IMG/VR virus record: IMGVR_UViG_2878918711_000001
Span: 3,170 to 67,169 of that record
Length of the DNA: 64,000 nucleotides
Source: a virus
Taxonomy: Duplodnaviria; Caudoviricetes
Reading direction: 5' to 3' (one strand)
Shown: piece after piece, positions 7,362-38,496 of the stretch
Numbering within the stretch: the stretch's first letter is position 1
Layout of the letters: each line of letters opens with the position of its first letter
Notes under the pieces: model-generated
Told to the model about the DNA's origin: nothing
What the model saw: the letters and a program-made list of their open reading frames with translations, nothing else
Databases searched by the model: none
Made by a program: the position numbers and the translations under genes

Positions 7362-7375
7362 TAAAGAGAAACTGA

Positions 7376-11264: not shown

Positions 11265-11291
11265 AACAGATAGTACACCCTCTGTAACAAT

Positions 11292-12026
11292 ATGATAATA
11301 GTTACACTCATACCACTGCTAATTTTCTTCGCAATCCTTTACCTTCGTTTCAACAAAGGTAAGATTGCAGAGAAAATGGTGCATCATAAGCTAATGCAAC
11401 TACCTGAAGAGTATCATGTCATAGACAATGTTCTCTTCATGAGCAATGGTAGGTCAACACAAATTGATCATATTGTGGTATCACCCTATGCCGTGTTTGT
11501 AATTGAGACCAAAGGCTATAAAGGTTGGATTTTCGGTGGGGAGAGCACCGAATATTGGACGCAAAGCATATACGGACACAAGTCAACCTTTTACAGCCCA
11601 CTTCTGCAAAATGATGGCCATGTGCGTTTCTTGAAGTTCATGCTGAAAGATTTAGGGAACATTCCATTTATTCCGATTGTGTGCTTCAACAACAAGGCAG
11701 AACTGAAGGTAAATGTTAACACCCATATTGTGGTGAATCGTTGCTGCTTAAAAGATGCAATTTTGCAATATAAAATTCCTGCAATTAGCCAAGAGATTAA
11801 AGAGAAAATTATTAGTATCATTGAGAGCAATAGCAAGACTTTGGAAAAAGGTGCTACATGCGAACACAAGTACAATGCACTTCGCAAGCAATACGATAGC
11901 CAAAATAAAATCCAACACGGTGTATGCCCAAGGTGCGGAGGACGACTTGTAGAAAGGCAAGGTAGATACGGATGTTTCTTTGGGTGTTCTAACTATCCAA
12001 AGTGCAAGTTTACATCTAACCGTTAA
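11292..12026 (+). CDS. Membrane-anchored NERD nuclease-related protein with C4 zinc ribbon
   Basis: N-terminal TM helix; 'TQIDHIVVSPYAVFVIETK'; C-terminal 'CPRCGG..GRYGCFFGCSNYPKC'. Confidence 0.85.
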   Translation: MIIVTLIPLLIFFAILYLRFNKGKIAEKMVHHKLMQLPEEYHVIDNVLFMSNGRSTQIDHIVVSPYAVFVIETKGYKGWIFGGESTEYWTQSIYGHKSTFYSPLLQNDGHVRFLKFMLKDLGNIPFIPIVCFNNKAELKVNVNTHIVVNRCCLKDAILQYKIPAISQEIKEKIISIIESNSKTLEKGATCEHKYNALRKQYDSQNKIQHGVCPRCGGRLVERQGRYGCFFGCSNYPKCKFTSNR

Positions 12027-12036
12027 TAAAAATATT

Positions 12037-13419: not shown

Positions 13420-13431
13420 AATAGTATTAGA

Positions 13432-13812
13432 ATGACAAAAGAAGAAATTTTGAAGTTCGATAAGACTGCAACTCAGTTGCAAGCCTTACATGACGAAGTT
13501 GCCGTACTGGTCAAAAAAGACCCCAGGGCAGAAGTTAATGAGTTCAAACTTAAACTTATCAACAAGGTACTTGTAACAGCAAATGACATCCTTGGAGATA
13601 TGAAACCTTTTGACGGTTTTGAAGTGTTTGATATAGATGCTTTGCCTAACAATGGAGATGTTGCAATGATTATCAGCCAATATATCAATTGCATGGAAGA
13701 ACTGAGAAAAGATAATGTTCATATGTTTTCAGGACGTTGGTATTGGAATGTCGATGGTAATAAAGAAAAGAATGACATCATGACATACATGCCTCTTAAA
13801 TATCAAAAATGA
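13432..13812 (+). CDS. Hypothetical protein, paralog A of tandem pair
   Basis: 126 aa; shares motifs with the next ORF. Confidence 0.75.
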   Translation: MTKEEILKFDKTATQLQALHDEVAVLVKKDPRAEVNEFKLKLINKVLVTANDILGDMKPFDGFEVFDIDALPNNGDVAMIISQYINCMEELRKDNVHMFSGRWYWNVDGNKEKNDIMTYMPLKYQK

Positions 13813-14174
13813 TGAATAAGGTATCTAAAGAAAAAGTTGAACTATATGAGGTCGTTCGTCCTCTCCTACATTCAGCATATTCCGAAGTAAAAGTTATGTC
13901 TGGTAAAAAGCAATCGGAACAGCTCAACCTCAACAAAGTCAAGATTATCAATAAATTGTTAGACAAAGTTTTGATTCTGCTGAAGGACGAACTTACAATC
14001 GAATTCCTTCAAAAACTGGATGAAGATGATTTGCCGACAAACAGCGATGCAGTTTTAATACTATCCCAATCTTTGTCCGCTATGGATCAGTTCCATTCAA
14101 AGTATTTCCATTCTGATGAATGGGAAGCATTCCGCACAGGAAAATGGCAGACAGAAGATGATGAGGAGGAGTAA
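13809..14174 (+). CDS. Hypothetical protein, paralog B of tandem pair
   Basis: 121 aa; ATGA overlap with paralog A. Confidence 0.75.
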   Translation: MMNKVSKEKVELYEVVRPLLHSAYSEVKVMSGKKQSEQLNLNKVKIINKLLDKVLILLKDELTIEFLQKLDEDDLPTNSDAVLILSQSLSAMDQFHSKYFHSDEWEAFRTGKWQTEDDEEE

Positions 14175-14229
14175 ATCTTCACTATATGCACAAATAAATG
14201 TTTTTTCTTGTGCATAGTTCACTATACAA

Positions 14230-14277
14230 GCAGACTTTGGATCCGCCCAGTGCGGCACCAAGGTCTGCTTTCTTTTT
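14230..14277 (+). terminator. Intrinsic terminator ending the cargo operon
   Basis: gcagactttgg..ccaaggtctgc stem with inner ccgc/gcgg, followed by tttcttttt. Confidence 0.65.
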
Positions 14278-14907
14278 ATCGGTAGTCGCTTTGCTTTGGC
14301 GGACACTCTCGCCAGTGGTAGGCTACCGCCCATTTTCTATATGCCAGAGGGAGGAGGGAGTGCGCCACCGTTGGGGCTTGAAGTGGTAGGTGTAATCGAC
14401 CTCGCACGGTGGTTGGCGGTTGCTGGTATTCGTGCTTGCTGTGGGGCTGCGACCGTGTAGCTTGTGCCGTGGTGATGACACGGAACCAAAGTTTGTTCTT
14501 ACGAGGGAGAGTGTTTGCTGGAAGTAAATGAGAGACTGAATTTAGCGAACAGAGGCTTATTTTCCCTTCACAAAGTTAGGTTGCTACCCTTGGTGAAAAA
14601 TTAGACACGATTTCCTCTCAATATTTTTATAGATCTACACCTGTTCAGAATCTAATGTACGTGTAAGAGAAAATCACCAGAACAATCATAATGATTACTT
14701 ATAAACGGTATTTTTCCCGATATTGTTCACTTTATGAGTATGGTTTAAGTGTTTTTGATAGTCTCTGATTTCCCTATTTTCTCTTATATTTCCCACCATA
14801 TCCCTTTCACTTGGTAGAACATTAAAAGCCCTCTACTTTTGTATCGTCAGAGCTGACTGAAAGCCCTATGCGCAAGGGCAAGTTATTCATTTCAAAACGA
14901 TGGAATT

Positions 14908-24311: not shown

Positions 24312-25544
24312 ATGAAAACCATTTTCAGAGCAGTCTTCTATTTAAGAAGCAACTATGTGAACAAGGAGGGTAAAACACCCGTGATGTTGAGAATCTATCT
24401 CAACAACGAACGACTTTCCATTGGCTCAACAGGTATTGCCGTTCAGCAGTCGCAATGGGATAGTGAAAAAGAACGACTGAAGGGAAGGACTACAGAGGTT
24501 CTTTCTACTAATCTCGAGTTGGATAACATCCAAAGCGGATTGCAGACCATCTTCAAAAAGTTGGAAATGACAGATGCCATTTCTTTGGAGCGTATCAAGT
24601 CGGAGTATCTCGGCAAGAAAGAAGAGGTAGAAACGATGATGACACTCTTCGATAAGCACAACAAAGATATTGCTAAGCAAGTGGGCATATCTGTAAGTGC
24701 TGCCACTTTTCAGAAATATAATGTCTGCAAACGACACTTCACAACTTTCTTGCAGGATAAGTACAAACGTTCGGATATACGTTTATCTGAACTCACCTAT
24801 ATCATCATACACGATTTTGATATTTATCTTCGCACAGTAGTTGGTCAGAATCCGAATACAGCCACCAAGACAATGAAGACTTTCAAGACAATTACAATCT
24901 TAGGAAGAAAAATGGGCGTAATCCATCACGATCCTTTTCTTAATCATCGCTTTCACCTTGAGCCGGTCAATCGTGGTTTCTTGACAGATGAAGAGATTTT
25001 GAAGATAGCCAATAAGGATCTGGGCATACAACGTTTGGAATTGGTTCGTGATTTATTCGTATTCTCGTGCTTCACAGGTTTGGCGTACATTGATGTGGCC
25101 AACCTTACTCCCGAGAACATTGTTACCCTTGATGACAAACAATGGATAATGACAAAACGACAAAAGACGAGTGTTGCAACAAATGTTCTTTTATTGGATA
25201 TTCCGAAGAATATCATTGAAAAGTATAGTGTCAAGACCTATCGTGATGGTAAACTCTTCCCAATGCTAACTAATCAGCGAACTAATTCATATCTGAAGGA
25301 AATTGCAGATATTTGTGGCATTAAAAAGGACCTAACCTTTCACATGGCTCGCCACACATTTGCAACAATGTCATTGAGTAAAGGTGTTTCTATGGAATCA
25401 GTTTCTAAGATGTTGGGGCATACCAACATTAAAACGACACAAATTTATGCCCGTATTACCAATAAGAAAATAGAACACGATATGGAACAGTTGGCGGGCA
25501 AGTTAGACAAGTTCAATGTTGCTATGGGCATCAACTCAAAATAA
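24312..25544 (+). CDS. Tyrosine integrase of ICE-B
   Basis: Arm-binding N-terminus; GLAYID variant, 'HMARHTF', 'LGHTNIKTTQIY'. Confidence 0.92.
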   Translation: MKTIFRAVFYLRSNYVNKEGKTPVMLRIYLNNERLSIGSTGIAVQQSQWDSEKERLKGRTTEVLSTNLELDNIQSGLQTIFKKLEMTDAISLERIKSEYLGKKEEVETMMTLFDKHNKDIAKQVGISVSAATFQKYNVCKRHFTTFLQDKYKRSDIRLSELTYIIIHDFDIYLRTVVGQNPNTATKTMKTFKTITILGRKMGVIHHDPFLNHRFHLEPVNRGFLTDEEILKIANKDLGIQRLELVRDLFVFSCFTGLAYIDVANLTPENIVTLDDKQWIMTKRQKTSVATNVLLLDIPKNIIEKYSVKTYRDGKLFPMLTNQRTNSYLKEIADICGIKKDLTFHMARHTFATMSLSKGVSMESVSKMLGHTNIKTTQIYARITNKKIEHDMEQLAGKLDKFNVAMGINSK

Positions 25545-25569
25545 TGTACAACCCTAAACCAAGAAGATT

Positions 25570-26037
25570 ATGACAACAACAAAGAAAGACCTTTCTTACT
25601 TCCGTTTGAAGTTAGAGAACTACCTCAGTGAGCATTTCCCCGAAATGCTGGGTGATAAACCATTCATAACGGCAAGAGCCGATGAAGCCCTTACTGCCTA
25701 CTGTGATGCAGTAGCACAAGGCTTTTCTCATCCAGAGGCAGAGGTAATGGCAAGCGAAGTTCTGTATCAAGGACTGCATTTCTCCAAGTACGACACCCTT
25801 GTTTCTGTCTTAGAGAATGAGTTCGAGAAAGAACTCCCTTCTCCTCTTCCAGAAAGACTAACACCAATGCTTCTGAAGAATAAGGCTGTGCAAAGCGTTT
25901 TCAATAAGTATGAACTGACGGACGATTTTGGTGCAAGTCCAGAGTATGAGAAACTCTACACCGAACTGACAGGGACAATCGTTCTGATCATCGAGGTCAA
26001 TGGCCTGCCAACCGTCGATAGTGAGAACATGACTTGA
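25570..26037 (+). CDS. DUF1896-family protein
   Basis: 'LSYFRLKLENYLSEHFPE..FITARADEA..LHFSKYDTL'. Confidence 0.85.
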   Translation: MTTTKKDLSYFRLKLENYLSEHFPEMLGDKPFITARADEALTAYCDAVAQGFSHPEAEVMASEVLYQGLHFSKYDTLVSVLENEFEKELPSPLPERLTPMLLKNKAVQSVFNKYELTDDFGASPEYEKLYTELTGTIVLIIEVNGLPTVDSENMT

Positions 26038-26046
26038 TGTAACACC

Positions 26047-26202
26047 ATCGGGAGCTTTTGTAGTGTCAAGAGCCAAGATAACTATTCTTCCCCACACACC
26101 AAGAGTTTGGACAAACACTTGGCTTTTTTCGAGCATAGCTCTCAACAACTCGTGTGAGGCAGAATATCTTGTTATTGCTCTTGAACTATTAAAAGCTCCG
26201 AT
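26047..26202 (+). other. Multi-stem structured element (~156 nt) ending at the next start codon
   Basis: Nested IRs atcgggagctttt/aaaagctccgat, tcaagagc/gctcttga, caagata/tatcttg, ccaag/cttgg, gagc/gctc. Confidence 0.6.
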
Positions 26203-26550
26203 ATGAATACAATCATCATGAATCAAGATGTCCACACACCTGCCTTCATCAAGGCAGACGCATCGAACAAAACCGATAATATCAAGCAACAGCCGAATTC
26301 TCCCAAGCAAGTCCGCCACTTCGGTTGGACACGCTTCATCGAACTCACTATCCTGCTTTCTATCGTTATCGGTGTCATTTGGCTTATCTCGAAGATGGTA
26401 ACGCCGCAAGTCGTAACTGTCGTCTCTGTCATCGCAGTTTTTCTGATACTACGTTTTATAGTCAGAGTAATTCTAAAAGTAACATTTACGCTGCTGAGCA
26501 TTCTCTTCTGGTTGGCCATTCTCTGTGCCATCCTGCTATGCATGCTTTGA
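26203..26550 (+). CDS. Small membrane protein
   Basis: 115 aa with about three hydrophobic segments. Confidence 0.65.
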   Translation: MNTIIMNQDVHTPAFIKADASNKTDNIKQQPNSPKQVRHFGWTRFIELTILLSIVIGVIWLISKMVTPQVVTVVSVIAVFLILRFIVRVILKVTFTLLSILFWLAILCAILLCML

Positions 26551-26589
26551 GAAGCACAGCTCTGTAATACCTTTCATTTATCGTTCATT

Positions 26590-26626
26590 AGGTGGTTATC
26601 TCACATTTCGAGATAGCCACCTTTTC
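26590..26626 (+). terminator. Intrinsic terminator
   Basis: aggtggttatctc/gagatagccacct stem followed by T run. Confidence 0.7.
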
Positions 26627-26718
26627 TATTTCCCACTATAGGCGTTGCACTTTCGCTTCCTTTCCAATGCTCCACAATATGCGATGACAAGAAGACGGAT
26701 GCTGTTCCCTTTTTATCC

Positions 26719-26849
26719 GCAAAGGTAGTACGGGGCATGTGGCTTTCAAAAGGTCTGTGCCGCTTGGTTTGTCTGGAAAATCTCCACACCTATGGGTTGT
26801 ATTTTCCGACAAAACCTTGTGTAAGCCTGCCCCGCTACCTCTATTTTGC
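26719..26849. promoter_or_regulatory. Long imperfect hairpin; candidate single-stranded (Frpo-like) leading-region promoter
   Basis: Pairs ggtag/ctacc, cggggca/tgccccg, ggctt/aagcc, aaggt/acctt, ggaaaat/attttcc. Confidence 0.5.
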
Positions 26850-26903
26850 TACAAAAAGGAATCAGCATACTCCGATCTTTGGACGCATAAAAAAAATGTC
26901 GCT

Positions 26904-27335
26904 ATGGATAAGCAAAAAGTAAATACAACATCTTCGATGAACAGCAAAGGATATAGCTCCTCCTCTCATTACCGCATTAACCCTACGGCTGAAAAAAGTG
27001 AGCAAGTGTTGGCAATTAAGTTTGTACAATGGGACGTTCCCCCTTTGGAGAGCCTTTGTAATAGCAAAGTATATCTCCTACGTGTGAAACTCAATCGTGG
27101 TGAGTGTATGAGCCGTGAGGAAAAGAATTGGCTATGTGAGGCGGTGAACTCAAACACCTATTTCCGCACAGCCGTTCCCCTACAAGGCTATCGCTTTGAC
27201 TTCTTTGACGTGCTGAAGAAATATCTTGTCAAGCAGTATGGACAATGGACAGAGTATTACGCACCCGACAGAACAAGCCTAAGAGCCTACCTATATGGAC
27301 GCATCAATCAAATAGTAGAAATTCCCAAGTATTAA
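26904..27335 (+). CDS. ICE hypothetical protein
   Basis: Start placed at MDKQKV, downstream of the hairpin. Confidence 0.65.
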   Translation: MDKQKVNTTSSMNSKGYSSSSHYRINPTAEKSEQVLAIKFVQWDVPPLESLCNSKVYLLRVKLNRGECMSREEKNWLCEAVNSNTYFRTAVPLQGYRFDFFDVLKKYLVKQYGQWTEYYAPDRTSLRAYLYGRINQIVEIPKY

Positions 27336-27357
27336 CAACATCAAAACATATACGACA

Positions 27358-27777
27358 ATGAAAGGAACAGAACATTTCACACGGACAATAGCCGAGTATC
27401 TCAATCAGCGTGCTATGACAGACCCCTTGTTTGCCCCTAACTTGATGAAGCCGAACAAGAATATCGAGGAGTGCATCACCTACATTCTTAATGAAGTGCA
27501 GAAAAGCGGTTGTAATGGCTTTGATGATGATGAAATCTTCTCTATGGCTGTTCACTACTACGATGAGGACGATATAGAAGTAGGTAAGGCTATTTCTTGC
27601 CAAGTTGCCGTTAATCACATTGTAGAACTCACGGAGGAAGAAAAAGCCGAAGCAAGGCAGGAAGCCATTAAGCAATATCAGCGGGAGGAACTTGCCAAGA
27701 TACAGAGCCGTAACGCACGAGTTAAAAAGACCGAGAACATAGCAACCCAAGTACAACCATCACTATTCGATTTTTAA
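27358..27777 (+). CDS. PcfK-like protein
   Basis: 'KNIEECITYILNEVQKSGCNGFDDDEIFSMAVHYYDE'. Confidence 0.85.
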   Translation: MKGTEHFTRTIAEYLNQRAMTDPLFAPNLMKPNKNIEECITYILNEVQKSGCNGFDDDEIFSMAVHYYDEDDIEVGKAISCQVAVNHIVELTEEEKAEARQEAIKQYQREELAKIQSRNARVKKTENIATQVQPSLFDF

Positions 27778-27781
27778 GCCT

Positions 27782-29056
27782 ATGAAACCGAGAAACAAAT
27801 TTGAGAAGGCGGTTTTGGAACAAAGCAAACATCTTTGCCCGATAACCAAGACACAAGACAAGTGGGCATTCCGTGAGTGCATAGACCACTTCGCCTACCG
27901 CTTGCCAAAAGGTCGCACTACTTGTATGGATTGTGGGCATAGTTGGGTAATGAACAAACATAGAGAAACTTGCACTTGCCCTCATTGCAGGGCAAAGTTG
28001 CAGGTCATGGAAACCTACGAACGCAAGTTGCAGCAGAAGCAGTATTTCACCCTACTTACCACATGTGGAGAGTTTCAAGTATTGCGTATGTTCCTCCTCG
28101 TGGCTGAAATGGAGAAAGGCTGCAAGGCTGAACACTATGTGCTTGAAATCGGGCAGTATTGGTGGAACGCACAAGGGCGGAAAGCATTGGTTGCCATACA
28201 ACGTATATTGGGACATTACGTTGATACATTTTCCTTTTGTGCTCCTATGGCAATACGCAACGATAATGAAGCCTATCAATATGCAGCCTATTCGCAGATA
28301 TATCCTAAGTTCAAGGTTACAGACACACTCCGCAGGAATGGTTTCAAGAATGATTTTCACGATATAGCCCCGACAACACTCATTTCGGCATTGCTTTCTG
28401 ACAGCCGTGTAGAAACATTGATGAAAGCAGGACGGATTGAACATTTGCGCTATTTTCTCAATAGCCCTCGAGACTTTGACAGTTACTGGAAGTCCTACAA
28501 GATAGCCAACCGAAGCGGATATGAAATAACCGACATTTCTCTATGGTGCGACTATGTGGACACGCTCCGCAGATTGGACAAAGACACTCACAGCCCGAAA
28601 TACCTTTGTCCTGCCAACCTCAGAGGCGAACACGACTGCAGACACGAGGAACTTCTCAGACTTCGTGAAAGGGAGGAGATAGAACAGAAGCAGCAGAAGG
28701 CAATCGAAGATGAAAAACGTTTCCGAGAACTTAAATCCAAGTTCTTTGGCATCGCTTTCACGGACGGCACAATCCAAGTCCACGTATTGGAGAGCGTGCA
28801 GGAACATTTGGAAGAAGGTGTATCAATGCACCATTGCGTATTTTCTAATGCATACTACCTTAAGGAGGACTCCCTTATCCTTTCGGCTACCATTGAAGGC
28901 AAGCGAATAGAGACTATTGAAGTATCATTACGAACTTTGGAAGTGGTGCAAAGTCGTGGGGTATGCAACAAGAACACAGAATACCATGAGCAGATAGTAA
29001 ACCTTGTTAATGCTAATCGAGGACTTATAAGCCGAAGAATGAAAGCGACTGCATAA
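27782..29056 (+). CDS. PcfJ-domain protein
   Basis: Zn ribbon; 'DYVDTL..LDKD', 'EEGVSMHHCV', 'ETIEV..VVQSRG..N'. Confidence 0.85.
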   Translation: MKPRNKFEKAVLEQSKHLCPITKTQDKWAFRECIDHFAYRLPKGRTTCMDCGHSWVMNKHRETCTCPHCRAKLQVMETYERKLQQKQYFTLLTTCGEFQVLRMFLLVAEMEKGCKAEHYVLEIGQYWWNAQGRKALVAIQRILGHYVDTFSFCAPMAIRNDNEAYQYAAYSQIYPKFKVTDTLRRNGFKNDFHDIAPTTLISALLSDSRVETLMKAGRIEHLRYFLNSPRDFDSYWKSYKIANRSGYEITDISLWCDYVDTLRRLDKDTHSPKYLCPANLRGEHDCRHEELLRLREREEIEQKQQKAIEDEKRFRELKSKFFGIAFTDGTIQVHVLESVQEHLEEGVSMHHCVFSNAYYLKEDSLILSATIEGKRIETIEVSLRTLEVVQSRGVCNKNTEYHEQIVNLVNANRGLISRRMKATA

Positions 29057-29083
29057 AGTATGAACCATTAAATTATCAGAGAT

Positions 29084-29338
29084 ATGAAAACAGAGATTGA
29101 AAACATCATCTACAACTATGCAGATGAGATACCGCATATTCTCATTAGGATTATTAATGCCATAACCCTATCCGACAACAAAGAGGAGTTAAGGTCGGCT
29201 ATCAACAAAATAGCTGAAGAAACAGAACTTGACAAGTTCTTTGCATACGGCTATGGCGCACATCACTTTTGGCTCACACATCGCAAATTATCTAATGGAG
29301 AGCCAAAGGAATACAGATTATTAAAAGTTGAATTTTAA
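29084..29338 (+). CDS. ICE hypothetical protein
   Basis: 84-aa ORF within the operon. Confidence 0.65.
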   Translation: MKTEIENIIYNYADEIPHILIRIINAITLSDNKEELRSAINKIAEETELDKFFAYGYGAHHFWLTHRKLSNGEPKEYRLLKVEF

Positions 29339-29342
29339 GATT

Positions 29343-29558
29343 ATGAAGAAGAAAGTTTACAGAGTACGGACACAATACATCTTCGAAGGAGTGTTTGATT
29401 TGGTTGCGGAGAGTAAGGAAGAAGCACGGCAAAAAGTCCTGCAAGATTGTGGGTTGGTTATGGGTGAAAGCATTCACAGCACTTTGCCCGATGATGAAAT
29501 AAACTGGGCGTTTGACATTCATCCGAATAAAAAGATAGGCAGAATAACGAAAGTGTAG
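29343..29558 (+). CDS. ICE hypothetical protein
   Basis: MKKKVYRVRTQYIFEGVFDLVAES...; directly follows the previous gene. Confidence 0.65.
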   Translation: MKKKVYRVRTQYIFEGVFDLVAESKEEARQKVLQDCGLVMGESIHSTLPDDEINWAFDIHPNKKIGRITKV

Positions 29559-29582
29559 AAATAGCACCTTGAATAAAACCAA

Positions 29583-29620
29583 AAGCCACGCAAACCGAAA
29601 ATTTGCGTGGCTTCTTTTCT
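29583..29620 (+). terminator. Intrinsic terminator
   Basis: aagccacgcaaa/tttgcgtggctt perfect 12-bp IR followed by cttttct. Confidence 0.75.
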
Positions 29621-29702
29621 TTGTCTTTGAACGAGCAGGCGACCAAAGCAAAGAAGCAAAAGAAAGTCGCAGGAAATATATCTGATTTATGCTCAATCTT
29701 TT

Positions 29703-30300
29703 TTATTGTGCCTCGCCTGCTAAAGTTAGAATGGAAATAGATGTTGAGATACCTGCTATCAAGGATGAGGCTAGTTTACCTTCTATATTTATTTGCCCCT
29801 CAGAAGGCTCCGTTCCAAAAGAGAGTCCATCTTCTTCCAATAATTCGTTACAGAAACGAACAAATTCTTTCTGCTTTCTAACTGGAGAGGTTGATAATCG
29901 AATAGCTTGTTCATTGACCAAACGTCCACCATAATATAGATTATCTAGGAGAATGAGCAAATCTGGGGCACAATCTTGGAAGAATTTATCGACATCTGAC
30001 ATTCCGTCATCACTTGACAATGTTCCTAAATCGAAAAAATCTATGGCAACTTCCTTATATTCATCTTCCAACTCCTTCTCCAAAAGCAATAAAAATTCAT
30101 CTATTTCATCCTTGTACTTTGTGAATACTTCAAGGTATTTGCTTAATTCTTCTGGAGTAGCTAATTCATCCATTTGATTAGAGATATCGTAATCTATTTG
30201 TCGTAGAGAATTACACAATTCATCCATACGTTCTCCAAAATGAATGAAATCAACGCGGTATTGACGTCCTTTATTATTCTTTAAATCTTTTCTAATAGGA
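29703..30300 (-). pseudogene. AT-rich gene apparently 5'-truncated by prophage insertion
   Basis: Frame stays open up to the prophage-end repeats; the ORF-track start (TTG at 30314) lies within the phage end. Confidence 0.55.
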
Positions 30301-30312
30301 TATATAATCCGC

Positions 30313-30368
30313 AAAACGAAATGTTGCGAAAGAACAAAACGAAGTGTTTGGTTGCGTAAAACGAAATG
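30313..30368 (+). repeat. Three transposase-binding-site-like repeats AAAACGAARTG
   Basis: Copies at 30313, 30336 and 30358 (spacing 23 and 22 bp), similar in scale to Mu end sites. Confidence 0.7.
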
Positions 30369-30395
30369 TACTTTTTAAAGCTCCCCTCATACATA

Positions 30396-30433
30396 AAAAA
30401 CGCCTCAAAAATCTTTTATTTTGAGGCGTTTTT
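30396..30433. terminator. Bidirectional terminator at the prophage end
   Basis: Perfect 15-bp IR aaaaacgcctcaaaa/ttttgaggcgttttt. Confidence 0.8.
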
Positions 30434-30445
30434 CCATGACAAATA

Positions 30446-30477
30446 TTTGTATATCTCGCAAAAAAGTACTACCTTTG
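30446..30477 (+). promoter_or_regulatory. Full Bacteroidetes promoter firing antisense into the TS-like gene
   Basis: TTTG(30446)-N20-TACCTTTG(30470), followed by hairpin ttgagag/ctctcaa covering the TS stop codon. Confidence 0.6.
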
Positions 30478-30505
30478 TATAGAATAAGTTGAGAGTTTTA
30501 TACTC

Positions 30506-31147
30506 TCAAACATTGAGTCCAAACTTTACGTCCTCATACCCATCAAGCAGTTGTTTGGTGCGGTCTATATTATTCTCATATATATGAACGTTGCCGAGGT
30601 TAAGTGTTATGCTTTTTAAGGGCAGGTCTATCTGTCGCGCCATCAGGTATAGGTGGTATATATCAGCTGGCAAGCCAAGGTTTGCATCACTGCTTCGTTG
30701 GTAGGCTGACAGTACCAGTTCTCCATCATCTATTTGAAATTGTACGAGGCTGAGGCAAGGTGCTTGATTACTCTCTGCACCAGTCTCGCCCAGGAACAGC
30801 ACATAATTCTTACTGCTGCGTTTTTCTCTATTAATCTTAGCGATAAGTGGTAGTAGCTTTTCAAAGTAAGTGGGATAGCTGTTCACTAATACACTTCCGC
30901 AGTAATCCCACCACCTAATACCCACATCGTGGTATCTCTCAACATTCCGCTCACCTTGCATGAATAGTTGTAACTCATTTCTCAGTTTCTTTCTCGCTAT
31001 TCCGTGGCTCTCGAAAATATCAAGCAAATCGCCAGGCGATAAGGACAGTTGTTCATTGAGTAGGTAACGAATGTTGCCTTTAGTATTCTTCTGAGGCTTG
31101 CCCTGCCCCAAAACCTTGCTTAGTATCTGATAGTATTTGTTCATCAT
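30506..31147 (-). CDS. Thymidylate-synthase-fold enzyme, predicted dCMP methylase/hydroxymethylase
   Basis: Catalytic 'PC', 'YQRSSD' and 'HIY'; 'GLPADIY' has Asp where ThyA has Asn177. Confidence 0.8.
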   Translation of the reverse strand: MMNKYYQILSKVLGQGKPQKNTKGNIRYLLNEQLSLSPGDLLDIFESHGIARKKLRNELQLFMQGERNVERYHDVGIRWWDYCGSVLVNSYPTYFEKLLPLIAKINREKRSSKNYVLFLGETGAESNQAPCLSLVQFQIDDGELVLSAYQRSSDANLGLPADIYHLYLMARQIDLPLKSITLNLGNVHIYENNIDRTKQLLDGYEDVKFGLNV

Positions 31148-31169
31148 TCAAATGGTGCTAAAATGGTAT

Positions 31170-32000
31170 TTAAACGGCATCTGTATAAATCATAATATCC
31201 GTATAGGACGCACTGTAATTCATATGTGCATTGAACTCCCGCCGATGACAGTTCTCAAAGGGGTTGCCGATGAGCCTGTTCTTGCCTATCCATTCGCAAA
31301 GCTCTACTATTGACGACTTGTTCGAGGTAAAATAGATGAAACGATGACCAGCGAGGATAGTCAGCACATCGAGGTAATCAGACAGCTTCCAGTACATTCT
31401 ATAAGTTTTACTATCCGTGCTCAGATATGGAGGATCGACAAGGAATACCACGTTTGGCACGTCTTTATACTTATCAAACACCTCTTTATAGTCGCAGGAA
31501 GTTATTGTTAAGCCATCAAGGTAATCGGTGCATAACGGATACTTGATTGATTTTACTCTGTTATACAAGGTTTCTTTCTCCATTTCAGCAAAGCAAGTTG
31601 CATACTTCATAGAAAACAAAAGTGATGCTGATAGCGTGATGTAATCGACATAGCCATACTTTTGTTCATGCTTGCGAATACAATCCAACACACGTTTCCG
31701 TACCTCGCCTAATATAGGCTTGCTTCGTGGAATATCTACTATCGCCCTCAATTCTTCTAACAGCTCATTTGTCTGAGAGATGCGCTCCAAACGTTGCCTA
31801 TAGCCATCAAAGTCATTATACACGACTGTAGAGTTTGGCTTTTGACACTTGGCGATATGCGACAGCAATCCGCTGCCACCGAACAAGTCTACAAATGTTG
31901 TACCATCGGGGAACTGTTGGAGAACCTTTATGTACTCCTTGGCGAACATCCGCTTCTGCCCCTGAAAAGGAAGTGGTGCCGAAAGATATAATTTTTTCAT
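31170..32000 (-). CDS. N6-adenine DNA methyltransferase, Hin1523/Hia5-like (mom replacement)
   Basis: 'APLPFQGQKRMF', 'VDLFGGSGLLSH', 'YNDFDGY', DPPY; at the end of a Mu-like genome. Confidence 0.85.
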   Translation of the reverse strand: MKKLYLSAPLPFQGQKRMFAKEYIKVLQQFPDGTTFVDLFGGSGLLSHIAKCQKPNSTVVYNDFDGYRQRLERISQTNELLEELRAIVDIPRSKPILGEVRKRVLDCIRKHEQKYGYVDYITLSASLLFSMKYATCFAEMEKETLYNRVKSIKYPLCTDYLDGLTITSCDYKEVFDKYKDVPNVVFLVDPPYLSTDSKTYRMYWKLSDYLDVLTILAGHRFIYFTSNKSSIVELCEWIGKNRLIGNPFENCHRREFNAHMNYSASYTDIMIYTDAV

Positions 32001-32070
32001 TGTTTCACAGGTTTGTTATGTATGGCAAAGTTCGCTATATTCAGCGAAGTAAAAGAACTTTTGCTCCAAA

Positions 32071-32319
32071 TCACACTGCAAGAGGTTTGCAGTCGCTTTG
32101 AAAACGTTTGATAAGCGTGTACACCTTGCGTTCGCTCACAGCATACTTTTCAGACAGCCGGGCTACGATATATGACACTTTCTCGCCACGTTCCAGCAGC
32201 GTAGTATAATCGGTGTATAAGTCCACATATTCCGCATCCTCGAGTCTGATACCGGACATTTTGAGTTTATTTATCAATTCCCTGTTAAATTTTAAGACTT
32301 CTATTATCTTCATAATCAC
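32071..32319 (-). CDS. Small protein with C-terminal HTH-like segment
   Basis: 'YIVARLSEKYAVSERKVYTLIKRF'. Confidence 0.65.
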   Translation of the reverse strand: MIMKIIEVLKFNRELINKLKMSGIRLEDAEYVDLYTDYTTLLERGEKVSYIVARLSEKYAVSERKVYTLIKRFQSDCKPLAV

Positions 32320-32340
32320 AAAATTTTGTATCTTTGCATT

Positions 32341-32456
32341 GTCTCACTTATTAATTGCGTATAGCGCAGCCAAAACAAAAACCGCAAAGACGGTCGGTTG
32401 GCATATTGCCCCCGGTCGCGTCTTTGCGGCGTTTTGTGTTATATAGTAAGTGAGAC
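32341..32456. ncRNA. Long hairpin: sRNA (+) and/or attenuator-terminator (-)
   Basis: IRs gtctcactta/taagtgagac, caaaac/gttttg, ccgcaaagac/gtctttgcgg, ggca/tgcc; TATCTTTG at 32329 immediately upstream on +. Confidence 0.6.
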
Positions 32457-32498: not shown

Positions 32499-32825
32499 TT
32501 ATTCCAAAATCAAATCGCCTCTTTCAATGGCGAAATATATATCACGCACTCCTTTGTATGCAGCAGATTGCTCCTCGATGTCCGGAATAGAATTCCAATG
32601 CCCATCTGTAAATGTCGAGCCGTTGTGCCCATAATCGGCCGCGCAACTTTCATCGGCAACATCATCATGGGTACATTTGGCTACATGGTCGTGAAATAGC
32701 AACACCTTGGCATTCTTTGGGTCGCTGACATCAGCCTTGTATGTAACTACATGAACAAAGCCATTTATAATGACTATACCGTTCACGTCTGCTTCAATTC
32801 GCTTTTGCATTACTTTTAGTTTCAT
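32499..32825 (-). CDS. Phage hypothetical protein
   Basis: 108-aa ORF after the tail fibre gene. Confidence 0.65.
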   Translation of the reverse strand: MKLKVMQKRIEADVNGIVIINGFVHVVTYKADVSDPKNAKVLLFHDHVAKCTHDDVADESCAADYGHNGSTFTDGHWNSIPDIEEQSAAYKGVRDIYFAIERGDLILE

Positions 32826-32847
32826 AATTCATTCATTTGTTTTAATA

Positions 32848-34527
32848 TTATACTAACATTTTTCCTCTTACCCAATTGGAGTTGTAATAACTTTCTTTTC
32901 CCGTTTCAGAATTAACCGAGATCTTTATTTCAAGGGCGGCAAAGTTATTCGGGTAGACTGTTATAGATGTACCCGATCCCCAAATGTTTATATAGCTCGT
33001 CGATTGGTTGTATATAGCTACAGTTTCCCCTATCAATGATCGTGCAACCTCAAAATCGCCATCACCGTAATGACCTCCACTACCGGGCACCGTTATAAAT
33101 ATAGTACGGTTAAACGAGCCTTTGAACAAAGCAATGGCGGATACTTTTCCGGCAACAAATACGTAACCAATATCGGGATCTATTTTCGCATATTTTGTGA
33201 TATTTTGAGGGGTTATTACAAGCATTTTCTTTCTGAAAGAACCAACTCCTGACATATACCCATTGACTGGGTCAAGAACGATGTCGGGGTTGAAATTTGC
33301 GGCACCGTAGTCCGTGCTTGGATTTCCATTTATGTCCCCGCACTGGGAGAACAGCCGCCCCTTGTCAAACACCCAACCGCCTAATAAGGCTTTTCCCTTG
33401 CTCACGACGAACGGTTTTTCACCATTATGCTTGATTTCAAAATTGGCTGCTTCGACAGATACCGTGCCATTGGTCAGGTCGATACCAGTACGCTCAATGC
33501 TGTCCACGACGTCTGGGTCTTTCCATGCTGTAGCTTTATTGCCCTCCTCCAGCTGTATTTCAGACAGAAAGGCTTCACCATTACGTGTTAGACCTATGAA
33601 TATTTGCAAGTAATTATAACCGTCTTCCATATCAAAGGTATGAGTATATTGCTTCCATTGCCCCCACGTCGATGGTATATTTGGATAACTCGTCTTCGGG
33701 GCTGTCATATCCTTTGAACGGCTTCTCTTGATTTCAATATAAGGCTGGTCGCTGCCATATATGCGTGTAAACATTGACAGTGTGTAGGTGCGCCCACCCA
33801 ACGCCTTTATCACAGGAAACTTACATCCGTTCCACTCATTCTGTGGAGCACCGTGGCGCACAATGGAAATGTAGGGATTGTCAAGATGTGCTACACTCGC
33901 ATAACTTCCAATTGTTACGTATTGAGCTCTTTGGAGTAACAATAAATCCAAAGGACGTAAACTTGCACCCTTGAGCATGTTCACACCGCTGAAAGTCTGC
34001 TTGCTGACCGACAGACGAATATTCTCGGCATCTTGCTCAATGGTAGACATGCGCCTTTCAAGCCCTTGTTTGTCTGCCTTGTTTTGTGCTATGATGCTTT
34101 GAAATTGCTGGTCGTTGGCAAGAAACTTAGCCTCGTTCCATTTCTGAGCACTCACCATGAATTCGGCAATGGCAGTACGTGTCTGCCCCTTGTAGGTGGC
34201 AGTAATCTCCACCTTTCCACTCCACTGGTTAGGACTAATACCGTCGAAGTATAGTGTGTTGTCGCCTACTATTCTTGCGTAGCAATTATAGGGTGTAATC
34301 TCAATGCTGCTGGGCACAACTTCCATCTTGCCAAGGTACATTCGCACCTTACCTTTGTTCTGCGCCAAATTTTCGATGGCACCCTTGTCGTTCGTTTGAA
34401 AAACAAAGGTATTTGGCGTAACTACAAGGGTGAGTGCATCTTCCCCTTTATCGCCGGGGTCTCCGGGCTTCCCATCTTTTGGTGCTCGGCGAACAGTAAA
34501 TGTGCGTTGTGCTATTATTTCTGCCAT
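32848..34527 (-). CDS. Tail fibre / receptor-binding protein
   Basis: Short collagen-like stretch, coiled coil, beta-rich CBM-like domain ending 'QLEEGNKATAW'; position in tail module. Confidence 0.7.
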   Translation of the reverse strand: MAEIIAQRTFTVRRAPKDGKPGDPGDKGEDALTLVVTPNTFVFQTNDKGAIENLAQNKGKVRMYLGKMEVVPSSIEITPYNCYARIVGDNTLYFDGISPNQWSGKVEITATYKGQTRTAIAEFMVSAQKWNEAKFLANDQQFQSIIAQNKADKQGLERRMSTIEQDAENIRLSVSKQTFSGVNMLKGASLRPLDLLLLQRAQYVTIGSYASVAHLDNPYISIVRHGAPQNEWNGCKFPVIKALGGRTYTLSMFTRIYGSDQPYIEIKRSRSKDMTAPKTSYPNIPSTWGQWKQYTHTFDMEDGYNYLQIFIGLTRNGEAFLSEIQLEEGNKATAWKDPDVVDSIERTGIDLTNGTVSVEAANFEIKHNGEKPFVVSKGKALLGGWVFDKGRLFSQCGDINGNPSTDYGAANFNPDIVLDPVNGYMSGVGSFRKKMLVITPQNITKYAKIDPDIGYVFVAGKVSAIALFKGSFNRTIFITVPGSGGHYGDGDFEVARSLIGETVAIYNQSTSYINIWGSGTSITVYPNNFAALEIKISVNSETGKESYYNSNWVRGKMLV

Positions 34528-34593
34528 TATTACTACTACTACTTTTATTTATTAAAGAGGGGGTAAGGGCATAATTCTAACGCCCTTACATTT

Positions 34594-35646
34594 TTAATAC
34601 AACTCTACACAAAATGCTTGGCTTGCGCTCAATAGGTCAGTATAGGCTATATCAAGCGAAAAGCGAGCATTCGGCGCATCTTTCGTGCATGCTTTGTAGC
34701 CACTTGTACCCCATGTCGTGTCGATGGCGTTATTGGCAGCAAAACGCCAAACGCGCATGTTGTGCGCTCCCAGTATGACGGCGTCGGTGATATAGGTAGC
34801 TCCCTGACGAATTTTGAACCAGTGCAGTAGTGTGCCACCTTCGGCAACGTTATCGCCGTTGGGTTGGAATACGTCTATTTCGTAGGGGTCCGAGCCATCG
34901 TACAGCGTGCCGATGGCGAATACCTCCTTATTTGCCGTTGCGCTGGCGGCGTCGGTATCTTTGATGACACATTTGAAAATACCTACATTTACGACAGCGG
35001 AAGCCGGCACTGTTATTTCGTTGGTGTTAATGCCGCTGATGCCGTTGGCATTGGCGGTTTCGAGTTTTACCCACACGCCGTTGCGTAGCTGATACCACAT
35101 GTAAGATACGTTAGATGTGTCGATGTCGCCACCACGCATCAAATCACAATGTATCTTCAACGCTTTTCCCGCGTTGTCGAAAGTATCGCCGTCAGGCATG
35201 TAGAGGCTTGCAAGAATGTTTGCCCCGGCATTCTCCACCTTTGTTACTTCCACCGACGCAACCACTTGTGCAGCTGCCTTTGACACGGGGTCGGTGTAGG
35301 TGGCTTCACACGTGATTTTTAAGCCTGTACAATCGGTAAGGTTGGCTGCTAACTTTTTGGCAAGCCCAGTGCCAGCCGTCAGTGCCTGTGTAGCTGCCGA
35401 GCCATCTTGCTTGAGCACACGCCAATTCAAATTGCTAAGGTACGCTGTCTGGTCTCCGGACTTCCCGCTTACCAACAGCATTGGTGTCAAGGTAAGTGCC
35501 GATGCTGCATAGTCAGGCGCAAATGTTTTGCTATCACGTGAAAAAATTTGTGTAAGTGCCTTGTCCGTCTTGAGGACGAAGGTAAGGGTCTTGCCATTCA
35601 CCAACTTCTTTACTGTAAATGTTTTTTGTGCTAATACGTCTGCCAT
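34594..35646 (-). CDS. Tail-associated beta-sandwich protein
   Basis: Beta-rich sequence; lies between the hub and fibre genes. Confidence 0.55.
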   Translation of the reverse strand: MADVLAQKTFTVKKLVNGKTLTFVLKTDKALTQIFSRDSKTFAPDYAASALTLTPMLLVSGKSGDQTAYLSNLNWRVLKQDGSAATQALTAGTGLAKKLAANLTDCTGLKITCEATYTDPVSKAAAQVVASVEVTKVENAGANILASLYMPDGDTFDNAGKALKIHCDLMRGGDIDTSNVSYMWYQLRNGVWVKLETANANGISGINTNEITVPASAVVNVGIFKCVIKDTDAASATANKEVFAIGTLYDGSDPYEIDVFQPNGDNVAEGGTLLHWFKIRQGATYITDAVILGAHNMRVWRFAANNAIDTTWGTSGYKACTKDAPNARFSLDIAYTDLLSASQAFCVELY

Positions 35647-35658
35647 TGTTCTTTATCT

Positions 35659-38496
35659 TTAAAATGTTATACTTGTTAATACTTTTTTACCTGATGGGGT
35701 TAGGAATTTACATACGAAAGACGTGTCGCCCATCAAGTCGTCATACGTTACATTTATTTTATAGCCATCGTTACTGTGCCTGTCTTTCCACGCAGCATCG
35801 CCTGCTTCGTATTCGCTTACACGCTCCCATACGAAGCGCGTAGAAGGCATCTTGCTTGTTATTTCCACGTCGTTTTCCCACACGTGGACTTCAAAGGTGG
35901 CTTCCCAACTTGTTTGCCCCTCTGTATAGGCTGCGCTGCCAGCAGAAGAAAAGCCCTCGACACGTAACCCTGTGCCGCCATCTTTGCCTTTGGCTGCATA
36001 CTGCTTCCACTTCGACGAATGCCCCGTTGGTTCATCGGCATTATTGTCTATCAATGAAAGCCACGTGCCCCCACTGTGGTACCACGCTTCATATTTCGCT
36101 GCCATTGTGCCCGGTGTCCAGTCGCCGCGGTAAAGGATATTCGGAATACGCTCGCCATCTGCACTTATCCATTCGAAGCGTGCCGAATTGACAAATACCT
36201 TGTCGCTGGACAGGTGAAATATGGCGTTACCTTTATTCAGCGAAAAATCGTGAACGTTGCGGTACACTTCGATAGTACCGCCCATTTCTTTAGATGTGGT
36301 AATCATCGTAACATTCATGCGGTTGCGATACAGCAGCGGGTCTACACCATGGGCAATATCCCACAATGTGTTATGCCCACAAAGCACCACATTGTCGCCT
36401 GCCTTTGGTACGTCATTTTTAACGTTTTTATCGCAATAGGCTTCGTCTGCGGTGATAACGATATACGCTTCTTCGTTTGCCGTCTTTTGTCCAACCTCCG
36501 ACACGCAACGCCAATAATACGTATTGCTGACGTTCTCATAAACACCTGCCCTTATGTTGAAGGTTTGGCACAGCGCTTGGTCGCCCGGCAACCAGTCGTT
36601 GGTGATAGCCTTGTCGCCGTCGTCGGTGTGTAAGTAGCACTTCCAGCCACCATTAACGGGCACAACCTTGTTTATGATGGCATTTGCACCTGAAAGCACG
36701 ATATTGCCGCCGATGTGTTTGTACTCGTCTATCTGAAGGCTACGGAAGATAGCCTTGCCAATCACCTCTAAGTAGTCGATTTGCCCATGGGCGCGCCCGT
36801 TCTCATCAAGCCAAACTCCAAAGCCATTAATGGTTCTTTCAAAGCCCAATGTCTGAATGGCTTTCAATATGGCGTTGCCCGCCCCGTCGATACCTGCACC
36901 GCCATTCAATGCGATGCCCCTCAAGAAGGTTATCAGCTCCTGCGCCGTGTCGGCTGAATTCTTACTCAGGAATTCCTTGTGTGTCCGTCGTGCACTGTAC
37001 AGGTTGGTATCTGTAGGCTTCGTCGTGTCGCCACTTCGGATAATGTCCGGCAATGCCCCAAGTGCCTCCCTTGCATACCTCTTGGCTTCATTGATACTAT
37101 CGGTGATACGTGTCATGGCACCTGTACTTGTAGCATCACTGATTTCAATATCCATCTGACTTGGCAGTGCCACGCTACGGCTTATGCGTGTGATACGGCT
37201 GCTGCGAAAACCAGTTTCAGGAAAATACTGCTCGCTTTCCAAGCGTATTTTTCGACCAACATAGATTTGTACGTTGTTACGTTCCACCCATACATGGTGC
37301 GTAGGGCATTTATATACTGATGTATCAATGCAGTGCTTGGCATTGAATGCTTCGACAGCCTCGAGATACTCCTGCTCGGCCAAGCCGTAATACTCATCGG
37401 GCATACGAATGTTCCAAAGTATATATTTGTCGCCTGCCTTTGGGACGAGGGTTCCGCCAGGCAACTGTATATCATCGCTGTATGGCCATGTCGTGATAAT
37501 CTCGAACTCCTGGCTACCGGCGTGATAGTTCACCTCAAAATCGCGGCCGTTAAGCTCGCCGCTTTGGAACACCACGTGCTTTACAAGCCCACCTATTTCA
37601 TATTCGTTAGGATTGAATGGCAATTCACCATCCTTGAACCAGTATATCTTGAACGGCTTGCCGTCGTTGCCCTTTACCGTAGTTTCTCTCACTTCGCTTA
37701 CCGTACCGACACGCCGTGGATAAATGGCTGAAAAGGCGGCTTCCTCGTAATGGTGGAAGATGCCATATTTATCAACGTTCATATCCACATACTTGCGGCC
37801 GCCAGGAAGCTGGAGACGAACAGAGCCATATTTTGCACGGTCGATATTGCGTGAGCTTCCCATTGGGAAAAGCCGTGTGTAAAATTTCGCACCATCGGCA
37901 GTATCACGTTCCAGTTGTGTAATGCTCTCAGGATAGCGAAGTGTCAGTTCCTCGCCATGCTCGCAACGGCAGACGTTTACCGTCTGCCCCTCCACCCACC
38001 ATTCTGTCTTGGCGGCTTCTGCAACGAGACGCAATCCCTCGTCGCAGTATGTTCCGTTGTAATCAATGGTCAGGTTCTCCGTTGCCATGACAGCTCCCAT
38101 CTTCCAATTCGCCGAGTTGCCCATACCGGCATTGATACTGCCAACGATAAGACGCACGTGGTCTGCAGCAGGAGCGGTAAGCGTGAATACAGCCTCGTTC
38201 TCGCCATCGGGGTTCTTCAACACCAGCAACCGCTTGATGAGGCTTTCAATTCCATAGAGCTTCACGTCGTAGCTCCATTCGCCCTCACTTTTTTGGGTGG
38301 GCAGGTAACGTTCCTGCAGCCAGTAGCGTTCGCCCTCGAATTCGCAGTAATCGTTCACGTCGAGCTGCACGAAGCCATAGTGCACGAATGAAAGGGACAG
38401 CAGGTTGTCGCCACCGAGGGTTTTGTCCTGCTGACTGTTGTTGCCTGGTTCTATTCGGCATTTCAAATTGTTGTCGCGGCCGTATATTTCTATCAT
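35659..38496 (-). CDS. Baseplate hub / tail (Tal-like) protein
   Basis: 945 aa after the Dit-like gene; 'FYTRLFPMGSSRN'. Confidence 0.7.
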   Translation of the reverse strand: MIEIYGRDNNLKCRIEPGNNSQQDKTLGGDNLLSLSFVHYGFVQLDVNDYCEFEGERYWLQERYLPTQKSEGEWSYDVKLYGIESLIKRLLVLKNPDGENEAVFTLTAPAADHVRLIVGSINAGMGNSANWKMGAVMATENLTIDYNGTYCDEGLRLVAEAAKTEWWVEGQTVNVCRCEHGEELTLRYPESITQLERDTADGAKFYTRLFPMGSSRNIDRAKYGSVRLQLPGGRKYVDMNVDKYGIFHHYEEAAFSAIYPRRVGTVSEVRETTVKGNDGKPFKIYWFKDGELPFNPNEYEIGGLVKHVVFQSGELNGRDFEVNYHAGSQEFEIITTWPYSDDIQLPGGTLVPKAGDKYILWNIRMPDEYYGLAEQEYLEAVEAFNAKHCIDTSVYKCPTHHVWVERNNVQIYVGRKIRLESEQYFPETGFRSSRITRISRSVALPSQMDIEISDATSTGAMTRITDSINEAKRYAREALGALPDIIRSGDTTKPTDTNLYSARRTHKEFLSKNSADTAQELITFLRGIALNGGAGIDGAGNAILKAIQTLGFERTINGFGVWLDENGRAHGQIDYLEVIGKAIFRSLQIDEYKHIGGNIVLSGANAIINKVVPVNGGWKCYLHTDDGDKAITNDWLPGDQALCQTFNIRAGVYENVSNTYYWRCVSEVGQKTANEEAYIVITADEAYCDKNVKNDVPKAGDNVVLCGHNTLWDIAHGVDPLLYRNRMNVTMITTSKEMGGTIEVYRNVHDFSLNKGNAIFHLSSDKVFVNSARFEWISADGERIPNILYRGDWTPGTMAAKYEAWYHSGGTWLSLIDNNADEPTGHSSKWKQYAAKGKDGGTGLRVEGFSSAGSAAYTEGQTSWEATFEVHVWENDVEITSKMPSTRFVWERVSEYEAGDAAWKDRHSNDGYKINVTYDDLMGDTSFVCKFLTPSGKKVLTSITF

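Follow-up and report, generated by a model that had tools for sequence, protein, structure and literature searches.

The operon described here lies at one end of a Mu-like prophage, in a 64,000-nucleotide stretch of DNA (the window) that corresponds to positions 3,170 to 67,169 of the IMG/VR virus record IMGVR_UViG_2878918711_000001 and derives from a Prevotella contig; its relatives at the DNA level, at about 67% nucleotide identity, are the phages of the Hankyphage group (p00, the jmh_hp phages, BX-TP and BKO1-TP). Three co-oriented open reading frames (ORFs) of the minus strand, which span 30506-32319 and had been recognized in the preliminary description, encode a small helix-turn-helix (HTH)-like protein, an adenine DNA methyltransferase with a DPPY motif and a 213-aa protein with the thymidylate synthase (TS) fold, separated by 70 nt (HTH gene to methylase) and 22 nt (methylase to TS). 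The set is flanked by two terminator-like hairpins: the first, with the stem CCGCAAAGACG...CGTCTTTGCGG followed by TTTTTGTTTT, stands between the upstream tail-fibre genes and the operon, and the second, AAACGCC..GGCGTTTTT, is kept in related loci in an alignment of 12 prophages. As judged from this layout, the three genes are a terminator-bounded unit of their own, headed by the HTH gene. The TS-fold protein is proposed to be a folate-dependent enzyme acting on C5 of deoxycytidine monophosphate (dCMP), probably a hydroxymethylase, which together with broad N6-methyladenine (m6A) formation would constitute a two-enzyme DNA-marking cassette; this is a tentative reading, whose chance of being right falls a little short of that of being wrong.

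The match of the 213-aa protein to PF00303 covers positions 2-223 of the 266 of the profile, and the TS-like and methylase proteins also match PHROG 160 and PHROG 56, in agreement with Pfam. In an alignment with E. coli ThyA, T4 gp42 and 26 near-full-length (190-400 aa) database representatives, the residues kept are ThyA Glu58 (E58 in the window protein), Trp80 (W80), Cys146 (C131), Gln165-Arg166-Ser167 (Q150-R151-S152), Asp169 (D154), His207 (H188) and Tyr209 (Y190); those altered are Asn177 (D162), His147 (L132), Leu143 (Q128), Trp83 (C83), Arg126-Arg127 (K113-N114), Arg21 (T22, with K23 adjoining) and Asp205 (N186). The C-terminal tail is absent, with 23 residues after Tyr190 compared to 55 in ThyA and 28 in T4 gp42. 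The catalytic Cys, the Q-R-S-x-D and H-x-Y motifs, the Asp at Asn177 and the loss of His147 had all been reported in the preliminary description and are found at these same positions. A distinct clade shares this combination of residues in its intact, full-length members, to identities as low as about 31%: Asp occupies the Asn177 position in nearly all the members scanned, the few exceptions being truncated or misaligned rows, Gln128 is nearly invariant, Asp154 is invariant, position 126 is Lys or Arg, and the residues for Cys attack and folate activation are all invariant. In the next relatives (P0245, P0258, P0260 and P0268), Asp177 is combined with Leu143, Arg126 and a long tail. A 3325-aa protein recovered with 25 matched stretches (P0234) was rejected as a relative, being an unrelated protein made of 122-aa tandem repeats.

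Positions 177 and 147 are the best separators of phage contigs with modified cytosine from unmodified ones, and the Asn177Asp replacement turns ThyA from deoxyuridine monophosphate (dUMP) to dCMP (PMC8670742). In the window protein both positions are in the cytosine state, and the cytosine-type reading of the TS homolog, put forward earlier on the basis of Asp177 and the missing His147, is well supported by these two most discriminating positions. An ordinary auxiliary thymidylate synthase, converting dUMP to deoxythymidine monophosphate (dTMP) and raising the supply of the triphosphate, is highly improbable. It would agree with the annotation "thymidylate synthase" given to the homologs of p00, of the jmh hankyphages and of the BX-TP phages, and with the bacterial ThyA enzymes as the nearest solved structures; temperate phages with true TS genes do exist. 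In fact, the AlphaFold (AF2) model of the protein (predicted local distance difference test, pLDDT, 94.2) has bacterial ThyA enzymes as best Foldseek matches, with a template modelling (TM) score of 0.83, but this ranking, like that of a PDB profile search, does not discriminate the TS subclass. Against such a function are the Asp at Asn177 and the loss in the clade of His147, Leu143, Trp83, Arg127 and the C-terminal tail. Moreover, the scores of the protein with the NCBIfam ThyA equivalogs, 25-61 bits (best 60.8), all remain far below the respective cut-offs (108-576 bits).

The sugar, the product and the type of chemistry can be read against the residue rules published for the TS subclasses. 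In the MilA study, Ser167 versus Ala and Arg126 versus Lys split deoxyribo- from ribo-preferring enzymes (PMC5175136). The main sugar determinant, Ser167, is kept in the window protein as Ser152, which is the deoxyribose state, and the MilA/BcmA pattern (Ala at Ser167 with Lys at Arg126) is absent, Lys113 alone agreeing with MilA. The replacement Asp169Asn is the mark of the flavin- and O2-dependent 5-hydroxy-dCMP synthases (PMC13326640); an enzyme of this kind (RB69 gp48 type) was ruled out because Asp169 is retained as Asp154 and is not Asn. A bulky Leu143 accompanies methyl products and Asp or Glu at 143 accompanies hydroxymethyl products, dCMP methyl transfer being tied to the hydrophobic Leu143 and to a closing C-terminal tail (PMC13326640); the window protein has the Asp177 of the dCMP methyltransferases, but Gln128 at position 143 and no tail. 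In T4 gp42, Asp145, Val85 (at the Trp83 position) and the absence of the C-terminal tail admit water and block hydride transfer, and the D145N hydroxymethylase is inactive, the Asp three residues before the Cys being the one that activates water (PMC6400193). All three elements that exclude water in ThyA are lost in the window protein as in T4 gp42 (Leu143 to Gln, Trp83 to Cys, no tail). The T4 Ser-x-Tyr motif (Ser94, Tyr96) falls near N89-S90-Y91-P92-T93-Y94 of the window protein, with an uncertain register to the T4 N-S-N-Y.

The features of ThyA itself that are missing comprise Asn177, His147, the Arg126'-Arg127' phosphate clamp, the Leu143/Trp83 water seal and the tail. Because the water-excluding elements are lost and yet Gln, not an acid, is found three residues before the Cys, the clade as defined by its residues fits no characterized subclass, neither ThyA nor the T4 hydroxymethylase, the dCMP methylases, the 5-hydroxy-dCMP synthases or MilA. 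The set formed by Gln143, Asn127, Lys or Arg at 126 and the short tail, together with the Lys at Arg126 that is the MilA/BcmA (ribonucleotide) state, could point to an uncharacterized substrate or chemistry (a ribonucleotide, a di- or triphosphate, or a nucleophile besides water and hydride) or to a non-catalytic remnant. This alternative is decidedly improbable; the residues for Cys attack and folate activation are invariant and Ser167 favors a deoxyribose.

The second enzyme of the operon is established, by sequence comparison, as a member of the Hia5/Hin1523 family, in accordance with the earlier motif-based assignment: in a direct alignment with Hia5, its residues 5-272 show 35% identity and 55% positives (E 7e-55). 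The motifs GQKRMF, FGGSGLLSH, YNDFDGY and DPPYL are common to the two proteins, FGGSG being located at residue 40 of the methylase and DPPY at residue 189, compared to 194 in Hia5. The nearest relatives come from Prevotella, with P. intermedia proteins at 92-93% identity, while the closest annotated relative outside the Bacteroidales is gp53 of Haemophilus phage SuMu (33% identity), a com-linked, right-end gene; a search seeded with SuMu gp53 recovers Hia5 (P0335). Methylases of this family without a TS gene are found in SuMu and in Moraxella and Flavobacterium phages. Hia5, Hin1523 and Nme1821 methylate nearly all adenines, so that all three characterized members have a relaxed specificity, and the activity of Hia5 and Hin1523 shields DNA from about 30 m6A-sensitive restriction enzymes, those tested (PMC3299994). 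The window methylase probably has a relaxed sequence specificity as well; this is only inferred because conservation with Hia5 is lowest in the target-recognition region, at about residues 80-170. The same low identity in residues 80-170, within an overall identity of 35%, would suit a sequence-specific orphan methylase, which is unlikely but retains considerable weight, independently of the estimates given to the other alternatives; the full-length family membership, the same position in a Mu-like prophage and the relaxed behavior of the three characterized members argue against it.

The distribution of the cassette was determined by scanning 185,579 species genomes, one genome per species, with a 6-sequence alignment as query, and 501 loci were found; identities, gene orders and codon figures refer to the best 80 of these. 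In them the TS protein is 81-91% identical to that of the window. The hosts are almost all Bacteroidales (Prevotella, Bacteroides, Alistipes, Muribaculaceae and others), with a few loci belonging to contigs that were binned as Clostridia (Oscillospiraceae, Oscillibacter, Waltera). Two gene orders occur, HTH-methylase-TS as in the window (49/80) and HTH-TS-methylase as in p00 (22/80), and five of the 80 loci are cut by contig ends. Synonymous sites are saturated, and identities by codon position were used in place of the ratio of nonsynonymous to synonymous substitution rates. Relative to the window genes, they are 0.86, 0.90 and 0.42 at positions 1, 2 and 3 for the TS gene, 0.79, 0.85 and 0.44 for the methylase and 0.70, 0.78 and 0.42 for the HTH gene; the TS gene is thus the most constrained of the three and, by this measure, is under strong purifying selection, which speaks against a remnant without catalytic function.

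Beyond these loci, some viral contigs carry a TS gene 67-70% identical to that of the window and no Hia5-like methylase. In one of them (L097, TS 70% identical) the methylase is replaced by a type III pair, an N6_N4 Mod and a Res helicase (10862-14776), which may represent defense cargo located at that phage's right end. A further member of the clade, 54% identical and with the same signature, belongs to the replication module of a non-Mu phage, which contains no methylase: small genes and a NinG/Rap-like gene lie on its two sides, and the contig also encodes a DnaB-like helicase and Erf. This placement fits a role of the TS protein before replication. When viral contigs were scanned with distant members of the clade (P0195, P0135 and P0164), no usable matches resulted. 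In a Bacteroides clarus prophage (L063) that has the TS gene and no methylase, a serine resolvase/invertase gene (6828-7460) lies just upstream of the HTH gene, a placement that resembles that of gin beside mom in Mu.

On the basis of these data, the following scheme can be proposed. The small HTH regulator would govern the right-end cassette of a Hankyphage-like transposable prophage. The TS-fold enzyme, through Cys131 and methylene-tetrahydrofolate, would transfer a one-carbon unit onto C5 of dCMP, and the product would most likely be 5-hydroxymethyl-dCMP and less likely 5-methyl-dCMP, hydration prevailing over hydride transfer. Host kinases would then raise the modified dCMP to the triphosphate, and the modified nucleotide would end mainly in phage DNA because the lytic synthesis of Mu-type phages copies nearly only the phage. 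The methylase would act after replication on adenine N6 in DNA, probably with relaxed specificity, and both marks together would blunt restriction at sites containing A and C. In this scheme the substrate, the product, its incorporation into DNA, the relaxed specificity of the methylase and the timing of expression are inferred, and the corresponding interpretation in the preliminary description, a shield of two modified bases, can be considered a reasonable one that the residue comparison supports in part.

Several observations weigh against this scheme. Three residues before the Cys there is Gln128 and not the Asp or Glu, an acid being needed there by the T4 dCMP hydroxymethylase. Two of the arginines that bind the phosphate are replaced by Lys113 and Asn114, and opposite Arg21 stands Thr22, which Lys23 adjoins; with these residues in place, the phosphate end of the substrate may therefore differ. 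In sequence the clade is closer to bacterial ThyA than to T4 gp42 (15% identity), and the PDB profile search, which as said does not discriminate the subclass, ranks bacterial ThyA first and T4 gp42 outside the best 60. The TS gene occurs without the methylase in 4/80 loci, and therefore the two enzymes need not act together. The prophage ORFs that were scanned yielded no deoxynucleoside monophosphate kinase, deoxycytidine triphosphatase (dCTPase), glycosyltransferase or DNA polymerase, as had been stated before for kinase and polymerase, and a 211-aa "ATPase" of the prophage shows only weak RecA/DnaB-like matches. The known phages that replace deoxycytidine, by comparison, need a kinase of their own for good incorporation (PMC13326640), and chemical data on Hankyphage DNA were not found in the searched literature. 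A truncated MetaGPA list of modified contigs gave no hit for a Hankyphage TS gene, a negative that carries no information.

Part of these observations would be explained if the enzyme acted on cytosine nucleotides in the nucleotide pool and not toward virion DNA, the methylase being the only DNA marker. The enzyme could drain or reroute dCMP, yield dTMP through deamination of 5-methyl-dCMP by a deaminase, or oppose a nucleotide-directed defense of the host. The lack of an encoded kinase or dCTPase among the ORFs scanned, the fact that four loci and a non-Mu replication module carry a TS gene but no methylase, and the altered phosphate-binding site with Lys113 and Asn114 all favor such a role. 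Nevertheless, it is unlikely: no precedent was found, the cytosine-type TS homologs of known phages correlate with modified DNA (PMC8670742), and a common purpose is suggested by the steady placement of the gene, at the mom position, next to an anti-restriction methylase. A bolder version of DNA marking, itself improbable, is that the clade (Gln143, Asn127, short tail) constitutes a new functional subclass of the TS fold by which very abundant temperate gut phages replace cytosine, wholly or in part, without a kinase or dCTPase of their own, giving Hankyphage-type virions modified at both A and C. Replacement without a kinase could proceed through another phosphorylation level, an undescribed C5 adduct or Bacteroidales kinases that accept the product, and genomes with dual A-plus-C modification would then have been missed by standard virome methods.

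As regards the genetic context, the placement of the operon at the right end of a Mu-like prophage, already advanced in the preliminary description, agrees with the MuA-like transposase (phrog_310, E 8e-48), MuB-like ATPase, Gam-like and Portal_Mu (E 8e-80) genes reported in Table 1, and with a MuF gene; tail genes, a lysin and a ClpP-type protease are also located to the right of the operon, while the genes on its left (PcfJ, PcfK, DUF1896 and tyrosine recombinases) are of a kind typical for conjugative elements of Bacteroidales. The terminus was mapped by aligning the DNA 3' of the TS gene in 12 related prophages that occupy different insertion sites: the 12 share the sequence as far as ...TTTCGTTTTGCGGATTATA and are unrelated beyond it, GGATTATA being the last conserved stretch. 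The end so defined, at 30303, lies 203 bp past the TS stop codon, and the cassette is therefore the terminal operon, where Mu carries com-mom. The hairpin and three AAAACGAA(A/G)TGT repeats in reverse orientation are common to all 12 aligned ends, the repeats being probably transposase-binding sites, and Hankyphage p00 carries similar AAACGAnGCGT motifs at its two ends. Of the 49 loci with the window gene order, 26 have the strict terminal motif 143-230 bp past the TS stop.

The genes adjoining the prophage end on its outer side are those of the conjugative element. A 203-aa ORF at this border was rejected as a member of the cassette, as it falls outside the prophage end; it may be a gene of the host or of the integrative and conjugative element truncated by the insertion, because its start is 11 bases inside the terminus. 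At the opposite side, the assembly, a single 67-kb contig, breaks within a repressor-like gene of the prophage's left end; a break at the contig end is expected if a transposable prophage is multi-copy or replicating. In the early region, a 207-aa protein shows weak matches to NUMOD1 and I-HmuI-like modules, which are DNA-binding modules of homing endonucleases. In Hankyphage p00 a diversity-generating retroelement (DGR), with a reverse transcriptase and template and variable repeats, separates the tail-fibre gene from the HTH gene, and no reverse-transcriptase match was found among the ORFs scanned at window 32499-38496.

The 82-aa protein at the head of the operon matches over its full length phrog_17790, a family with no assigned function (E 7e-41). 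The match to Pfam Mor (PF08765) is weak (E 0.011; 16 bits with a cut-off of 24.9) and limited to the HTH at residues 52-75, the Mor structure 1RR7 aligns across just 23 residues, and the structural matches of the AF2 model (pLDDT 91) are to generic HTH proteins only, with Z-scores of 5-7.7. Phage BKO1-TP1 has a relative that carries the annotation Mor domain protein, and the 82-aa protein is possibly a Mor/C-like activator. It is a small HTH protein and not a homolog of Com.

Table 1. Position of the operon, of the prophage end and of the other genes cited in the text (window coordinates).
Feature	Position	Strand	Remarks
HTH-like gene, 82 aa	32071-32319	-	heads the operon; all-helical
Hia5/Hin1523-family D12-class N6-adenine DNA methyltransferase, 276 aa	31170-32000	-	PF02086, E 6e-11; PHROG match
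TS-fold gene, 213 aa	30506-31147	-	Pfam Thymidylat_synt PF00303, E 1e-19; PHROG match
Terminator-like hairpin, 5' of the operon	32372-32440	-	stem followed by TTTTTGTTTT
Terminator-like hairpin with T-run, 3' of the TS-like gene	30395-30433	-	read from sequence
Prophage right end	30303..30370	-	terminal sequence TATAATCCGC on the plus strand
Terminal repeats AAAACGAA(A/G)TGT	30313-30324, 30336-30347, 30358-30369		reverse orientation
203-aa ORF	29703-30314		outside the prophage end
Conjugative-element genes	24312-30314		tyrosine recombinase, DUF1896, PcfK, PcfJ
Portal_Mu gene	51641-53092		
Gam-like gene	56148-56711		
207-aa early-region protein	58463-59086		
MuB-like ATPase gene	59973-60848		
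MuA-like transposase gene	60943-62940		
Repressor-like gene, interrupted	63491-64000		prophage left end

Few temperate phages of the gut Bacteroidales of humans and animals are as widespread as the Hankyphage-type transposable phages, and hin1523-type methylases have already been linked to phage persistence in the gut. If modified cytosine and dense m6A were both present, they would help explain the broad host range and persistence of the Hankyphages, would alter the behavior of their DNA in restriction, cloning and sequencing, and would extend the known pathways of cytosine modification by a route that temperate phages take without a kinase. For enzymologists, the residue signature delimits a defined clade that is outside all current rules of product prediction, and an inducible Hankyphage strain already exists (PMC12135933).

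The comparison with known systems starts from these phages. Hankyphage p00 (BK010646), jmh_hp and BX-TP/BKO1-TP are likewise transposable MuA/MuB phages of Bacteroidales that carry the same three-gene cassette at their right end, with amino-acid identities to the window of 83% for the TS and 64% for the methylase, and in p00 the right end is annotated as "thymidylate synthase" and "DNA methyltransferase N6". The cassette is hence already known and annotated in a phage group that is very common, whereas the preliminary description knew of no characterized example of the pairing; the function of the pairing is not discussed in the searched papers: neither the function of the TS gene in Hankyphages nor the chemistry of their DNA was found in that literature, and in a PLoS Biology study the methylase gene serves solely as a landmark of the right end. 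The elements that are new, at the level of sequence comparison, are the fuller residue signature, which agrees with none of the published subclass rules, the rejection of a 5-hydroxy type, the precise position of the prophage end, the direct alignment with Hia5, the two gene orders, the loci with the TS gene only and the clade member in a non-Mu replication module. Compared to p00, the order of the genes is swapped, p00 having HTH-TS-methylase and the window HTH-methylase-TS with the TS gene terminal; in addition, the host is Prevotella and the window has no DGR reverse-transcriptase match upstream.

T4 gp42 shares with the window protein the TS fold, the catalytic Cys, the Asp at the Asn177 position, the absence of the C-terminal tail and the replacement of Arg21 by Lys and of Trp83 by a small residue (Cys83 in the window, Val85 in T4). 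It differs in having an essential Asp where the window protein has Gln at -3 and the Arg-Arg of the partner subunit where the window protein has Lys-Asn; moreover, its partner kinase, dCTPase and glucosyltransferases were not found in the window phage. The dCMP methyltransferases, represented by the N177D mutants of ThyA, have in common with it Asp177 and, by prediction, the folate-dependent one-carbon transfer to cytosine C5, whereas their pattern of Leu143 and tail is absent in the window and present in P0245, P0258, P0260 and P0268. The enzyme of Xanthomonas phage Xp12 is a dCMP methyltransferase.

As to the second enzyme, Hia5, Hin1523 and Nme1821 have FxGxG and DPPY at matching positions and occupy the mom position of Mu-like prophages (FluMu-type). 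The window differs from this group in the small HTH gene upstream, which is not com, and in the pairing of the methylase, known here from its sequence, with a TS-fold gene, the versions of Haemophilus, Neisseria, Moraxella and SuMu being without TS. With Mu com-mom the proteins are unrelated, there being neither a Mom acyltransferase nor a Com zinc finger, and the chemistry differs; the likeness lies in the arrangement, which in both cases is a terminal, separately terminated DNA-modification operon, of presumed anti-restriction function in the window, at the right end of a transposable phage.

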